A DNA stretch of 5,904 nucleotides, taken from IMG/VR virus record IMGVR_UViG_2711768059_000001; one strand, 5' to 3'. The translations under genes and the position numbers were made by a program. Shown piece by piece: positions 1,422 through 5,904 of this stretch. The first letter of the stretch is position 1; every line of letters starts with the position of its first letter. The stretch comes from a virus. Taxonomy: Duplodnaviria > Heunggongvirae > Uroviricota > Caudoviricetes. Under the pieces are notes generated by a model. It ran no database searches and was not told the origin of the DNA. It was given only the letters and a program-made list of their open reading frames with translations.

Positions 1422-1837
1422 GTTTTGCCCTGAAACTGGCGCGTGAGATGGGGCGACCCGACTGGCGTGCCATGCTTGCCGGGATGTCATCCACGGAGTA
1501 TGCCGACTGGCACCGCTTTTACAGTACCCATTATTTTCATGATGTTCTGCTGGATATGCACTTTTCCGGGCTGACGTACACCGTGCTCAGCCTGTTTTTC
1601 AGCGATCCGGATATGCATCCGCTGGATTTCAGTCTGCTGAACCGGCGCGAGGCTGACGAAGAGCCTGAAGATGATGTGCTGATGCAGAAAGCGGCAGGGC
1701 TTGCCGGAGGTGTCCGCTTTGGCCCGGACGGGAATGAAGTTATCCCCGCTTCCCCGGATGTGGCGGACATGACGGAGGATGACGTAATGCTGATGACAGT
1801 ATCAGAAGGGATCGCAGGAGGAGTCCGGTATGGCTGA
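999..1837 (+). CDS. T: Tail assembly chaperone gpG-T fusion, produced by programmed -1 ribosomal frameshift at the G GGA AAG heptamer (1397-1403); T-specific part is about 1402-1837
   Basis: Slippery heptamer GGGAAAG lies 16 nt before the G stop. The -1 frame continues open for about 144 codons (GKVFDGELSFALKLAREMGRPDWRAMLAGMSSTEYADWHRFY...GGVRYG) to TGA at 1835-1837. The T frame has no convincing independent start (the track's start at 1403 is a GTG inside the slippery region with no SD). Arrangement is the established lambda G/G-T recoding system. Confidence 0.85.
1397..1403 (+). other. Programmed -1 ribosomal frameshift slippery heptamer G GGA AAG (G to G-T recoding site)
   Basis: Heptamer read directly: frame-0 codons GGA (1398-1400) and AAG (1401-1403) preceded by G1397. 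After a -1 slip the reading is GGG AAA GTG..., continuing in the T frame. Confidence 0.82.
1816..1823 (+). promoter_or_regulatory. Shine-Dalgarno AGGAGGAG upstream of the H start codon (lies within the end of the T frame)
   Basis: AGGAGGAG at 1816-1823, 6-nt spacer to ATG at 1830. Seen directly in sequence. Confidence 0.65.
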
Positions 1838-4391
1838 ACCGGTAGGCGATCTGGTCGTTGATTTGAGTCTGGATGCGGCCAGGTTTGACGAGCAGATGGC
1901 CAGAGTCAGGCGTCATTTTTCCGGTACGGAAAGTGATGCGAAAAAAACAGCGGCAGTCGTTGAACAGTCGCTGAGCCGACAGGCGCTGGCTGCACAGAAA
2001 GCGGGGATTTCCGTCGGGCAGTATAAAGCCGCCATGCGTATGCTGCCTGCACAGTTCACCGACGTGGCCACGCAGCTTGCAGGCGGGCAAAGTCCGTGGC
2101 TGATCCTGCTGCAACAGGGTGGTCAGGTTAAGGACTCCTTCGGCGGGATGATCCCCATGTTCAGGGGGCTTGCCGGTGCGATCACCCTGCCGATGGTGGG
2201 GGCCACCTCGCTGGCGGTGGCGACCGGTGCGCTGGCGTATGCCTGGTATCAGGGCAACTCAACCCTGTCCGATTTCAACAAAACGCTGGTCCTTTCCGGC
2301 AATCAGGCGGGACTGACGGCAGATCGTATGCTGGTCCTGTCCAGAGCCGGGCAGGCGGCAGGGCTGACGTTTAACCAGACCAGCGAGTCACTCAGCGCAC
2401 TGGTTAAGGCGGGGGTAAGCGGTGAGGCTCAGATTGCGTCCATCAGCCAGAGTGTGGCGCGTTTCTCCTCTGCATCCGGCGTGGAGGTGGACAAGGTCGC
2501 TGAAGCCTTCGGGAAGCTGACCACAGACCCGACGTCGGGGCTGACGGCGATGGCACGCCAGTTCCATAACGTGACGGCGGAGCAGATTGCGTATGTTGCT
2601 CAGTTGCAGCGTTCCGGCGATGAAGCCGGGGCATTGCAGGCGGCGAACGAGGCCGCAACGAAAGGGTTTGATGACCAGACCCGCCGCCTGAAAGAGAACA
2701 TGGGCACGCTGGAGACCTGGGCAGACAGGACTGCGCGGGCCTTCAAATCCATGTGGGATGCGGTGCTGGATATTGGTCGTCCTGATACCGCGCAGGAGAT
2801 GCTGATTAAGGCAGAGGCTGCGTTTAAGAAAGCAGACGACATCTGGAATCTGCGCAAGGATGATTATTTTGTTAACGATGAAGCGCGGGCGCGTTACTGG
2901 GATGATCGTGAAAAGGCCCGTCTTGCGCTTGAAGCCGCCCGAAAGAAGGCTGAGCAGCAGACTCAACAGGACAAAAATGCGCAGCAGCAGAGCGATACCG
3001 AAGCGTCACGGCTGAAATATACCGAAGAGGCGCAGAAGGCTTACGAACGGCTGCAGACGCCGCTGGAGAAATATACCGCCCGTCAGGAAGAACTGAACAA
3101 GGCACTGAAAGACGGGAAAATCCTGCAGGCGGATTACAACACGCTGATGGCGGCGGCGAAAAAGGATTATGAAGCGACGCTGAAAAAGCCGAAACAGTCC
3201 GGCGTGAAGGTGTCTGCGGGCGATCGTCAGGAAGACAGTGCTCATGCTGCCCTGCTGACGCTTCAGGCAGAACTCCGGACGCTGGAGAAGCATGCCGGAG
3301 CAAATGAGAAAATCAGCCAGCAGCGCCGGGATTTGTGGAAGGCAGAAAGTCAGTTCGCGGTACTGGAGGAGGCGGCACAACGTCGCCAGCTATCCGCACA
3401 GGAGAAATCCCTGCTGGCGCATAAAGATGAGACGCTGGAGTACAAACGCCAGCTGGCTGCACTTGGCGACAAGGTTACGTATCAGGAGCGCCTGAACGCG
3501 CTGGCGCAGCAGGCGGATAAATTCGCACAGCAGCAACGGGCAAAACGGGCCGCCATTGATGCGAAAAGCCGGGGGCTGACTGACCGGCAGGCAGAACGGG
3601 AAGCCACGGAACAGCGCCTGAAGGAACAGTATGGCGATAATCCGCTGGCGCTGAATAACGTCATGTCAGAGCAGAAAAAGACCTGGGCGGCTGAAGACCA
3701 GCTTCGCGGGAGCTGGATGGCAGGCCTGAAGTCCGGCTGGAGTGAGTGGGAAGAGAGCGCCACGGACAGTATGTCGCAGGTAAAAAGTGCAGCCACGCAG
3801 ACCTTTGATGGTATTGCACAGAATATGGCAGCGATGCTGACCGGCAGTGAGCAGAACTGGCGCAGCTTCACCCGTTCCGTGCTGTCCATGATGACAGAAA
3901 TTCTGCTTAAGCAGGCAATGGTGGGGATTGTCGGGAGTATCGGCAGCGCCATTGGCGGGGCTGTTGGTGGCGGCGCATCCGCGTCAGGCGGTACAGCCAT
4001 TCAGGCCGCTGCGGCGAAATTCCATTTTGCAACCGGAGGATTTACGGGAACCGGCGGCAAATATGAGCCAGCGGGGATTGTTCACCGTGGTGAGTTTGTC
4101 TTCACGAAGGAGGCAACCAGCCGGATTGGCGTGGGGAATCTTTACCGGCTGATGCGCGGCTATGCCACCGGCGGTTATGTCGGTACACCGGGCAGCATGG
4201 CAGACAGCCGGTCGCAGGCGTCCGGGACGTTTGAGCAGAATAACCATGTGGTGATTAACAACGACGGCACGAACGGGCAGATAGGTCCGGCTGCTCTGAA
4301 GGCGGTGTATGACATGGCCCGCAAGGGTGCCCGTGATGAAATTCAGACACAGATGCGTGATGGTGGCCTGTTCTCCGGAGGTGGACGATGA
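1830..4391 (+). CDS. H: Tail tape measure protein gpH (853 aa)
   Basis: 853-aa ORF beginning MAEPVGDLVVDLSLDAARFDEQMARVRRHF... matches lambda gpH. Long charged A/E/K/Q/R-rich central region typical of tape measure proteins, glycine-rich hydrophobic C-terminal segment. Start ATG overlaps the T stop (ATGGCTGA) and the stop overlaps the M start (ATGA). Confidence 0.96.
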   Translation: MAEPVGDLVVDLSLDAARFDEQMARVRRHFSGTESDAKKTAAVVEQSLSRQALAAQKAGISVGQYKAAMRMLPAQFTDVATQLAGGQSPWLILLQQGGQVKDSFGGMIPMFRGLAGAITLPMVGATSLAVATGALAYAWYQGNSTLSDFNKTLVLSGNQAGLTADRMLVLSRAGQAAGLTFNQTSESLSALVKAGVSGEAQIASISQSVARFSSASGVEVDKVAEAFGKLTTDPTSGLTAMARQFHNVTAEQIAYVAQLQRSGDEAGALQAANEAATKGFDDQTRRLKENMGTLETWADRTARAFKSMWDAVLDIGRPDTAQEMLIKAEAAFKKADDIWNLRKDDYFVNDEARARYWDDREKARLALEAARKKAEQQTQQDKNAQQQSDTEASRLKYTEEAQKAYERLQTPLEKYTARQEELNKALKDGKILQADYNTLMAAAKKDYEATLKKPKQSGVKVSAGDRQEDSAHAALLTLQAELRTLEKHAGANEKISQQRRDLWKAESQFAVLEEAAQRRQLSAQEKSLLAHKDETLEYKRQLAALGDKVTYQERLNALAQQADKFAQQQRAKRAAIDAKSRGLTDRQAEREATEQRLKEQYGDNPLALNNVMSEQKKTWAAEDQLRGSWMAGLKSGWSEWEESATDSMSQVKSAATQTFDGIAQNMAAMLTGSEQNWRSFTRSVLSMMTEILLKQAMVGIVGSIGSAIGGAVGGGASASGGTAIQAAAAKFHFATGGFTGTGGKYEPAGIVHRGEFVFTKEATSRIGVGNLYRLMRGYATGGYVGTPGSMADSRSQASGTFEQNNHVVINNDGTNGQIGPAALKAVYDMARKGARDEIQTQMRDGGLFSGGGR

Positions 4392-4717
4392 AGACCTTCC
4401 GCTGGAAAGTGAAACCCGGTATGGATGTGGCTTCGGTCCCTTCTGTAAGAAAGGTGCGCTTTGGTGATGGCTATTCTCAGCGAGCGCCTGCCGGGCTGAA
4501 TGCCAACCTGAAAACGTACAGCGTGACGCTTTCTGTCCCCCGTGAGGAGGCCACGGTACTGGAGTCGTTTCTGGAAGAGCACGGGGGCTGGAAATCCTTT
4601 CTGTGGACGCCGCCTTATGAGTGGCGGCAGATAAAGGTGACCTGCGCAAAATGGTCGTCGCGGGTCAGTATGCTGCGTGTTGAGTTCAGCGCAGAGTTTG
4701 AACAGGTGGTGAACTGA
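4388..4717 (+). CDS. M: Tail tip assembly protein gpM (109 aa)
   Basis: ORF MKTFRWKVKPGMDVASVPSVRKVRFGDGYSQRAPAGLNANLKTYSVTLSV... matches lambda gpM. Start overlaps H stop by 4 nt, stop TGA at 4715-4717 overlaps the L start. Confidence 0.93.
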   Translation: MKTFRWKVKPGMDVASVPSVRKVRFGDGYSQRAPAGLNANLKTYSVTLSVPREEATVLESFLEEHGGWKSFLWTPPYEWRQIKVTCAKWSSRVSMLRVEFSAEFEQVVN

Positions 4718-5415
4718 TGCAGGATATCCGGCAGGAAACACTGAATGAATGCACCCGTGCGGAGCAGTCGGCCAGCGTGGTGCTCTGGGAAATCGACCTG
4801 ACAGAGGTCGGTGGAGAACGTTATTTTTTCTGTAATGAGCAGAACGAAAAAGGTGAGCCGGTCACCTGGCAGGGGCGACAGTATCAGCCGTATCCCATTC
4901 AGGGGAGCGGTTTTGAACTGAATGGCAAAGGCACCAGTACGCGCCCCACGCTGACGGTTTCTAACCTGTACGGTATGGTCACCGGGATGGCGGAAGACCT
5001 GCAGAGTCTGGTCGGCGGAACGGTGGTCAGGCGTAAGGTTTACGCCCGTTTTCTGGATGCGGTGAACTTCGTCAACGGAAACAGCGAAGCCGATCCGGAG
5101 CAGGAGGTGATCAGCCGCTGGCGCATCGAGCAGTGCAGCGAACTGAGCGCGGTCAGTGTCTCTTTTGTACTGTCCACACCGACTGAAACGGATGGCTCTG
5201 TTTTTCCGGGGCGTATCATGCTGGCCAACACCTGCACCTGGACCTATCGCGGCGATGAGTGCGGTTATAGCGGTCCGGCGGTCGCGGATGAATATGACCA
5301 GCCGACGTCCGATATCACGAAGGATAAATGCAGCAAATGCCTGAGCGGCTGTAAGTTTCGCAATAACGTCGGCAACTTTGGCGGCTTCCTTTCCATTAAC
5401 AAACTTTCGCAGTAA
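4717..5415 (+). CDS. L: Tail tip assembly protein gpL (232 aa); C-terminal cysteine cluster (CTWTYRGDECGYSG...CSKCLSGC) consistent with a metal/Fe-S binding site
   Basis: ORF MQDIRQETLNECTRAEQSASVVLWEIDLTEVGGERYFFCNEQ... matches lambda gpL. ATG at 4717 shares its A with the M stop codon (TGATG). Stop TAA at 5413-5415. Confidence 0.93.
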   Translation: MQDIRQETLNECTRAEQSASVVLWEIDLTEVGGERYFFCNEQNEKGEPVTWQGRQYQPYPIQGSGFELNGKGTSTRPTLTVSNLYGMVTGMAEDLQSLVGGTVVRRKVYARFLDAVNFVNGNSEADPEQEVISRWRIEQCSELSAVSVSFVLSTPTETDGSVFPGRIMLANTCTWTYRGDECGYSGPAVADEYDQPTSDITKDKCSKCLSGCKFRNNVGNFGGFLSINKLSQ

Positions 5416-5419
5416 TCCC

Positions 5420-5904
5420 ATGACAGAGACAGAATCAGCGATTCTGGCGCACGCCCGGCGATGTGCGCCAGCGGAGTCGTGCGGCTTCGTGGTGAGAGCG
5501 CCGGAGGGGGAAAGATATTTTCCCTGCGTGAATATCTCCGGTGAGCCGGAGGCGTATTTCCGGATGTCGCCGGAGGACTGGCTGCGGGCAGAGATGCAGG
5601 GTGAGATTGTGGCGCTGGTCCACAGCCACCCCGGTGGTCTGCCCTGGCTGAGTGAGACCGACCGGCGGCTGCAGGTGCAGAGTGATTTGCCGTGGTGGCT
5701 GGTTTGCCGGGGGGCGATTCACAAGTTCCGCTGTGTGCCGCATCTCACCGGGCGGCGCTTTGAGCACGGGGTGACGGACTGTTACACGCTGTTCCGGGAT
5801 GCTTATCATCTGGCGGGGATTGAGATGCCGGATTTTCATCGCGAGAGTACCGGGGGTGGGTCCGGGCAGAAGCACGATATGGCTATACATGAGGCGCAAA
5901 GGGG
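5420..5904 (+). CDS. K: Tail tip assembly protein gpK, 5' portion (runs off the window end); N-terminal JAMM/MPN-type metalloprotease motif and start of an NlpC/P60-like domain. Start codon uncertain: 5420 (preferred) or internal ATG at 5564
   Basis: Open frame from ATG 5420 (4 nt after L stop) reads MTETESAILAHARRCAPAESCGFVV...EIVALVHSHPGGLPWLSETDRRLQ...GVTDCYTLFRDAY... It contains E-x-C-G (E19), H68-x-H70, S78 and D81, i.e. a complete JAMM motif, followed by a D-C-Y cysteine typical of NlpC/P60 (Cys about residue 121). Position after L fits lambda order. Confidence 0.85.
   Translation, partial: MTETESAILAHARRCAPAESCGFVVRAPEGERYFPCVNISGEPEAYFRMSPEDWLRAEMQGEIVALVHSHPGGLPWLSETDRRLQVQSDLPWWLVCRGAIHKFRCVPHLTGRRFEHGVTDCYTLFRDAYHLAGIEMPDFHRESTGGGSGQKHDMAIHEAQR

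Follow-up and report, generated by a model that had tools for sequence, protein, structure and literature searches.

Where does the tail gene K of lambda-like phages begin, and does its product carry a complete JAMM metalloprotease site? In the 5,904-nt stretch of DNA analysed here (the window), two ATG codons of the K reading frame offer themselves as starts, at 5420 and at 5564, and the proteins they would open differ by 48 N-terminal residues. A reading made from the sequence alone (hereafter, the sequence-only reading) had set out both candidates, at coordinates that agree with the sequence, and had favoured the longer form. From comparative sequence analysis and structure prediction, our best explanation overall, to which we give a probability of about 0.93, is that the start of K lies at 5420, that its product has a complete JAMM domain, and that the classical short gpK is artefactual.

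Gene order and extent of the window

The window covers a lambda-like tail region, of either a phage or a prophage, and its gene order, V-G/T-H-M-L-K, is the same as in lambda. V (213–983) lies 5′ of G (999–1421), which the T frame overlaps; H (1830–4391), M (4388–4717), and L (4717–5415) follow, with overlaps of 4 nt at the H/M junction and 1 nt at the M/L junction. K comes last, its 5′ two-thirds present after L before the gene runs off the window end, and I and J, which stand 3′ of K in all relatives examined, both lie beyond that end. By megablast, the window is 97–99% identical to many lambdoid phages (PhiR34_1, mEp460, lambda hybrids, and phages 434 and 21), and matching prophages occur in 4,359 of 5,426 complete E. 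coli genomes.

The resemblance of K to known K genes reaches as far as 5845, megablast matches ending at 5845–5847; compared with the lambda gpK family, the window copy can be followed to residue 142 only and diverges at 5846. The K frame stays open throughout the final 59 nt (5846–5904, strand undefined), which fall outside the functional description. Searches for this segment in E. coli genomes, IMG/VR, GTDB representative genomes, and JGI metagenomes found nothing, phage records gave hits at chance level only, and the segment is not repeated locally and does not represent a shuffled version of the sequence expected there. Because it matches nothing, the window copy of K cannot be traced to a stop codon. 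K may here be a truncated or chimeric copy that departs at 5846, or the segment may be an assembly end artefact.

The start region of K

All features of the start region lie on the + strand. The L stop codon, TAA at 5413–5415, aligns with the lambda L stop and is followed by a 4-nt spacer, tccc (5416–5419), and then by the ATG at 5420–5422, the predicted true start and Met1 of the 247-residue form, which is supported by the conservation of this ATG, by homolog N-termini, and by RefSeq (PGAP) and other records. Lambda has a spacer of 5 nt, against the 4 nt of the window. As the sequence-only reading had remarked, this ATG sits 4 nt past the L stop without an obvious Shine–Dalgarno (SD) sequence; none is found in the bases ahead of 5420 (AACAAACTTTCGCAGTAATCCC). 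Codons 1–48 (5420–5563), which we call the extension, separate it from the internal ATG at 5564–5566, which is codon 49 of the long form and the classical lambda K start. The GGAGG placed ahead of that codon in the earlier reading is indeed there, at 5548–5552, inside the codons for Pro43-Glu44-Ala45 and 11 nt ahead of ATG 5564; the classical short start was assumed to use it as its SD-like element.

The K frame is open from 5345, and its first ATG is the one at 5420; the other in-frame candidates are TTG 5378, GTG 5489, 5492, and 5528, and ATG 5564. GTG 5528 (codon 37), the start used in KT232076, was rejected; it would delete Glu19 and helix 1, and its nearest SD-like run ends 20 nt upstream. 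TTG 5378, which lies inside L upstream in the K frame, was set aside as well, homolog N-termini agreeing with ATG 5420 instead. A scan of 5300–5700 found no promoter-like site, and it gives no sign that a short K would be transcribed on its own. The same scan returned one weak terminator-like hairpin, inside L at 5367–5383.

What the choice of start means for the protein is readily seen from the catalytic motif. The predicted zinc-binding part, H68-S-H70-x7-S78-x2-D81 (HSHPGGLPWLSETD), is encoded at 5621–5662, and Glu19 in AESCG, predicted to act as the general base of the active site, has its GAG codon at 5474–5476. Were K to start at 5564, H68 would become residue 20, and Glu19, whose codon lies upstream, would be lost; both consequences had been drawn correctly beforehand, as had the spacing of about 49 residues between the glutamate and the HxH element (exactly 49 from Glu19 to H68).

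A base missing from the lambda reference

The annotation of lambda in NC_001416 places K at 14276–14875 (199 residues), 148 nt past the end of L at 14127. The sequence-only reading had described this arrangement, a short start after a gap of about 148 nt, and its description is accurate; its picture of the classical start as a choice between two in-frame ATGs is not, for in J02459/NC_001416 the upstream ATG (14133) is in a different frame from the annotated K ATG. The cause is a single base. Where the window reads GGAGGCGTATTTCC, J02459/NC_001416 reads GGAGGC-TATTTCC, one G being absent after reference position 14266 (G5554 of the window), and the upstream ATG is out of frame in the reference because of this absence. 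It there opens a 76-codon open reading frame, which begins with MTQTESAILAHARRCAPAESCGFVV before it slips out of register and becomes nonsense; the missing G thus left the annotators of 1982 with the internal ATG only. With the G, lambda gpK has 247 residues and 28.3 kDa; without it, 199 residues and 23.0 kDa. Window residues 1–142 are about 96% identical to G-corrected lambda gpK, with 6 differences, and common K alleles of E. coli prophages are 98% identical to the window K.

Which version is the authentic one? Seven lambda-type records (Lambda_AGU LC730321, of 48,503 bp, KT232076, PV340536, lambda imm434, DE3, HK630, and the J53 prophage) carry the G, and over 1,880 nt they show zero mismatches to the reference and a single gap, which is this G. 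J53 is a K-12 laboratory strain. Suppliers' notes for lambda cI857 Sam7 DNA presumably list a G insertion at 14266. In the MutaMouse transgene, which derives from lambda-gt10, 14266 C>CG is reported in all copies (PMC6760142, Table 5), and the variant table lists it without comment on K. The segment is present in 4,332 E. coli genomes; the best matches among them all carry the G, and their top identity of 99.7% over 322 nt means that the G-less version is reproduced by none of the genomes listed. Besides J02459 and its RefSeq copy NC_001416, the G is lacking in OR974322, from a chicken swab, and in OR474059, which is flagged UNVERIFIED; neither differs from the reference anywhere in the stretch compared, and both may hence be reference-derived. 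From these comparisons, the missing G is most likely a sequencing error in the 1982 reference, and the classical 199-residue gpK of lambda is, on the same evidence, an artefact of it.

Conservation and selection among close relatives

For close relatives, we assembled 180 related stretches, the window itself included, from phage records, E. coli genomes, and IMG/VR. An ATG stands at the position of 5420 in all 169 loci whose alignment reaches residue 1, and in the set as a whole the frameshift is confined to three J02459-type loci. The distance from the L stop to this ATG ranges from 4 to 10 nt among the relatives, an SD never being present. No stop codon occurs in any of 123 unique alleles, and of the 55 variable sites in codons 2–48, 33 are third positions. 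Codons 2–48 have a pooled pN/pS of 0.166 and codons 49–142 one of 0.143, compared with 2.3–4.4 in the other two frames of the same DNA (4.4 and 2.4 for codons 2–48). As the two parts are so alike in pN/pS, the protein is constrained in the extension just as it is in the accepted part of K.

Codon 49 behaves differently from codon 1. Among 124 unique close alleles it is ATG in 57 and ATC, ATT, or ATA in 67, and Met49 is, as the alleles suggest, an ordinary internal hydrophobic residue of an F-x-[IM]-x-P segment. The GGAGG is present in most close alleles and consists of coding bases for P-E-A/E/D. An open extension of 48 codons has by itself a chance of about 10% of arising and is weak evidence; the conservation and domain tests go far beyond chance.

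Distant relatives

The long N-terminus is also the rule in remote homologs. A scan of 1.84 billion cluster representatives with P0004, a full-length relative 98% identical to the window K, gave 2,787 hits, from which 105 full-length-like representatives below 62% identity were taken as the distant set. Two database proteins that scored above genuine homologs, P0001 and P0002, proved to be assembly artefacts with internal duplications and were ignored. In the great majority of the 105, the N-terminus lies within about 8 residues of Met1, and in only one does the protein start near residue 49 (offset −48). Glu19 is kept in 100 of them, alongside Cys21 (94) and Gly22 (102); of the zinc-binding part, His68 is found in 103, His70 and Asp81 in 102 each, and Ser78 in 95, with Thr in a further 7. 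Residue 49 is Ile in 67 of these representatives and Met in 14.

Domain architecture and predicted fold

If the extension belongs to the enzyme, profiles and structures of the JAMM family should cover it, and they do. Against the Pfam profile Prok-JAB (PF14464, cutoff 25 bits), the long form scores 54.8 bits (E-value 1e-14) over profile positions 4–103 of 114, matched by residues 4–98, whereas the short form scores 25.4 bits, at the cutoff (E-value 1.4e-5), over positions 63–107 only. The extension thus supplies profile positions 4–62, including the Glu, and a domain comparison of the kind the sequence-only reading had proposed comes out in favour of the long form. The JAB/MPN+ (JAMM) metalloprotease domain, as delimited by Pfam and Foldseek, is predicted to occupy residues 1 to about 105 (5420–5734), and the window contains its complete motif of E19, H68, H70, S78, and D81.

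In sequence searches of solved structures, residues 4–108 align with two JAB proteins, 2KKS and 2KCQ, as well as with Pyrococcus furiosus JAMM1 (PfJAMM1), the alignments to 2KKS, 2KCQ, and 5LDA beginning at residues 4–13. Each of them pairs E19 with a family glutamate, that of PNEACG in 2KKS, of PEEGCG in 2KCQ, and of SVEVCG in PfJAMM1 (5LDA). This pairing, together with the retention of Glu19 across the distant set, upholds the argument that a complete JAMM motif requires the upstream glutamate.

An AlphaFold2 model of P0004, built from a shallow alignment (37 sequences at ≥69% identity), has a mean pLDDT of 79.6, with values of 83–94 for residues 1–40 and 91–92 for residues 51–70. Residues 1–40 are predicted to form a helix (3–15) and two strands (20–27 and 30–36). 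The best Foldseek match in the PDB is PfJAMM1 bound to the ubiquitin-like SAMP2 (5LDA), with 107 aligned columns at an rmsd of 2.5 Å and a TM-score of 0.67 normalised to the target; Rpn11, CSN5, and 2KKS follow after the PfJAMM1 entries (5LDA/5LD9). An alignment of 107 columns is too long for residues 49–105, so the predicted MPN fold must take in the extension as well. The earlier reading had named as the contrary outcome a structure prediction that leaves the 48 upstream residues outside this fold; the model places residues 1–40 inside it with high confidence. By profile, motif, and predicted MPN fold, the window K fits the JAB/MPN+ (JAMM) family.

In full-length relatives, the remainder of the protein is a second peptidase domain. 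There NlpC/P60 (PF00877, cutoff 23 bits) matches residues 111–224 with 47.6 bits, and relatives 98% identical to the window K hold both the JAB and the NlpC/P60 domains within 247 residues. The window contains the start of the NlpC/P60 (C40) domain, residues 111–142 (5750–5845), and this fragment scores 13.8 bits. C121, H187, and H199 are invariant in full-length relatives; only the catalytic Cys121 (codon 5780–5782) lies inside the window. The C-terminal half of the model matches MepS/Spr-type NlpC/P60 peptidases by Foldseek.

Competing accounts of the K start

Could the short form nonetheless be the sole product, started at ATG 5564 by means of GGAGG 5548–5552, with the upstream 144 nt an untranslated spacer? 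The GGAGG lies 11 nt ahead of that ATG, and this is how K is annotated in the lambda reference and in several curated records derived from lambda; these short annotations, however, derive from a reference in which the missing base hid the long frame. The supposed spacer is moreover under frame-specific purifying selection as strong as that on the rest of K and encodes a conserved Glu and half of the JAB domain, and the proposed start codon specifies Ile in 67 of the 124 close alleles and in the majority of the distant homologs. As judged from these sequences, the selection pattern and the non-conserved Met49 effectively exclude a K that is short only. An account in which both products are made, full-length K from 5420 and, in alleles that have ATG 5564, a truncated protein by internal initiation, meets less resistance, and we regard it as unlikely. 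The truncated protein would amount to an NlpC/P60 peptidase on its own, what is left of its JAB domain being crippled; the SD-like GGAGG and the ATG are present in both the window and lambda, and phage K proteins with the NlpC/P60 domain only have been noted (Iyer et al., PMC1779556). Yet the internal ATG is missing from more than half of the close alleles and from 86% of the distant representatives, so that any short product would not be a conserved feature. The GGAGG is also accounted for by the Pro-Glu-Ala codons, its 11-nt spacing is longer than optimal, and by the model a fragment from residue 49 would be devoid of three secondary-structure elements of the MPN fold.

The deletion in J02459 could also be a real mutation of the lambda cI857 Sam7 stock, in which case a 199-residue gpK would be functional and the JAB domain dispensable in the laboratory. 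OR974322 and OR474059 do show the same G-less sequence, but the latter is UNVERIFIED, and the stretch of the former, a chicken-swab record, is identical to the reference in a way that suggests reference-guided assembly. Against a real deletion stand the seven lambda-type records that match the reference over 1,880 nt save for this G, the lambda-gt10 transgene that carries it (PMC6760142), and the best E. coli genome matches, all of which have it. The concordance of the seven records with the transgene makes such a mutation highly improbable. We thus return to a K gene that starts at 5420, the reading that the sequence-only analysis had preferred and that pN/pS, the conserved ATG, the N-termini of distant homologs, the Prok-JAB score, and the AlphaFold model have all borne out.

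A possible route from translation to tail tip assembly

On the preferred reading, the K coding sequence begins at ATG 5420, 4 nt past the L stop, and its product, of 247 residues in relatives, would be an N-terminal JAB/MPN+ (JAMM) zinc metalloprotease (residues 1 to about 105) fused to a C-terminal NlpC/P60 cysteine peptidase whose part would run from Cys121 onward. The 48 upstream residues, comprising helix 1, two beta strands, and the catalytic Glu, would be an integral part of the enzyme and not a leader. Given the lack of an SD ahead of 5420 and the end-to-end packing of H, M, and L, K is most likely translated by coupling to L; it is plausible that ribosomes terminating on L restart at 5420.

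What might such an enzyme do? The protein family with the JAB and NlpC/P60 combination, TAPK, was predicted to cleave a ubiquitin-like domain from the neighbouring gpI (Iyer et al. 2006, PMC1779556). gpK is described as required for tail assembly and as being of unknown location and role (PMC12617516); by mass spectrometry it went undetected in lambda virions, and only residues 135–223 of gpI are resolved in the tail tip (PMC10721106). The JAB domain of gpK may accordingly process the ubiquitin-like N-terminal domain of gpI, the product of the next gene, during tip assembly, gpK itself presumably not being retained in the virion. Such processing is compatible with the absence of gpK from virions and with the presence of gpI 135–223 in the tip. 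That full-length gpK is an active JAMM isopeptidase, which removes the gpI ubiquitin-like N-terminal domain and leaves the plug of residues 135–223, we put forward tentatively, as a possibility with the odds somewhat against it.

Relation to known systems

K goes by several family names, including TAPK, "C40 family peptidase" in RefSeq (e.g., WP_000194780.1), and phrog_30 in PHROG. The GenBank lambda protein NP_040598 (199 residues) has 48 N-terminal residues fewer, which is a difference of annotation and not of biology.

The archaeal JAMM1 of P. furiosus (5LDA/5LD9), the best structural match, shares with K a minimal single-domain MPN+ fold with the same E…HxH…S..D motif, and both are associated with a ubiquitin-like beta-grasp partner, SAMP2 for PfJAMM1 and gpI for K (PMC1779556). 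The archaeal JAMM1 desampylases are 22–25% identical to K, which differs from them in its fusion to NlpC/P60 and in acting in phage tail assembly. Against NF041370, the NCBIfam equivalog model of the Haloferax desampylase, K scores 30–33 bits at a cutoff of 130, a value so far below the cutoff that K should be considered a homolog of the desampylase family and not a member. This weak full-length similarity to the haloarchaeal enzyme nonetheless seems to fit the theme of gpI processing. The eukaryotic MPN+ isopeptidases Rpn11 and CSN5 share the fold and the catalytic motif with the modelled K (Foldseek E-values of 2e-4 to 1e-3), but differ in their Ins-1 and Ins-2 insertions, their length of about 300 residues, their residence in large complexes, and their low identity (16–22%).

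For the second domain, the C-terminal part of full-length K matches MepS/Spr (PDB 8XUD, 2K1G, and 7V6S), with Cys121, His187, and His199 conserved. Unlike MepS/Spr, K lacks a signal peptide and any lipobox context, and of this domain the window holds the first ~32 residues, including the Cys. The F-type pyocin protein PA0639 / pyoF8, from a Pseudomonas tailocin, is described as a gpK homolog and is likewise absent from mature particles, a likeness taken from its description.

Annotation status and significance

The long form is already in use outside the lambda reference. In related prophages, among them the J53 lambda prophage (WP_000194780.1), RefSeq PGAP calls a "C40 family peptidase" gene of 744 nt, and some recent phage records also start K at the long-form ATG. 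The short K persists in NC_001416 and in HK630, DE3, and lambda imm434, which contain the G and were annotated by similarity, and recent literature still quotes 199 residues for gpK (PMC7291167). The JAB + NlpC/P60 architecture has been known since 2003–2006. Since PGAP calls the long form and the architecture has been described, the long K is not a new biological feature; its start is a correct and worthwhile annotation fix for the lambda reference. Our literature search found no paper linking 14266insG to the K start, and none stating that lambda K is mis-started. The window itself holds an ordinary lambda-type K gene, correctly annotated by modern tools.

The correction matters, as lambda serves as the reference model for phage tails of the long non-contractile type and the role of gpK within it is still obscure. 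A single-base error in a landmark reference has spread to curated annotations (HK630, DE3, lambda imm434), and possibly to a family database, while automated pipelines called K correctly on other genomes. A gpK of 247 residues with a complete JAMM active site bears on how K is cloned, modelled, and mutated, and on how the 2006 prediction of gpI processing is put to the test. If gpK does cleave gpI, work on the 199-residue protein would have used an enzyme without its catalytic Glu and part of its fold, and this incompleteness could help explain why the role of gpK has stayed obscure.

The K gene and its neighbours

The junction between L and the long form of K varies among alleles in the length of its spacer, whereas the K ATG itself and the absence of a Shine–Dalgarno sequence are constant. 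The window carries 4 nt between the L stop codon and this ATG (TAAtcccATG, 5413-5422), as compared with 5 nt in lambda (TAAatcccATG, positions 826-836 of L001, our lambda reference locus), and a third allele group has a 10-nt spacer (TAAatcccggtttATG). At the other end of the gene, the final 59 nt of the window (5846-5904) are unrelated to K, which the preceding 426 nt match at 97-99%. The K frame stays open across these 59 nt (…HRESTGGGSGQKHDMAIHEAQR). Searches with this segment of E. coli genomes, IMG/VR, GTDB representative genomes and JGI metagenomes returned no match, and those of phage records returned chance-level hits only. The segment does not repeat nearby sequence, and it is not a shuffled version of the K continuation expected here. 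It may represent a contig end that is chimeric or of low quality, or else a real disruption of K.

Further upstream, an ORF of 140 aa (999-1421) is overlapped by a second ORF in a different frame (1403-1837), the layout that one would expect of lambda G together with its programmed -1 frameshift product, G-T.

Gene I, which follows K and lies outside the window, likewise has two rival starts, as seen when positions 1474-2145 of L001 are compared with the related loci L006 and L181 1995-2567. The lambda reference annotation gives a gpI of 223 aa that overlaps K by 103 nt (L001 1474-2145, NC_001416 14773..15444), while RefSeq PGAP, in the J53 prophage, and the lambda-type record PV340536 give 190 aa, starting at an ATGA that overlaps the K stop codon. 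The residue numbering of the cryo-EM paper follows the 223-aa form; Goulet et al. (2020) give 190 residues.

Discrepancies in reference and database records

Besides 14266 C>CG, the variants listed for the lambda-gt10-derived MutaMouse transgene include 137 AG>A relative to the lambda reference, both being single-base differences (PMC6760142, Table 5). Position 137, near the left end and outside the window, may be another reference error.

Among database proteins, P0001 and P0002 scored higher than genuine K homologs. In both, parts of K are duplicated internally and then give way to out-of-frame sequence. The two look like short-contig assembly artefacts and were left out.

The frameshifted lambda reference also contains a 76-codon orphan ORF (L001 834-1064, NC_001416 14133..14363), in which K residues 1-45 run into out-of-frame sequence. 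The PHROG family phrog_7305, annotated as "unknown function", has a profile of 76 positions, matching K residues 1-76. Judging only by these equal lengths, phrog_7305 may derive from orphan K fragments of this kind, in which case the error in the lambda reference would have been carried into a family database.
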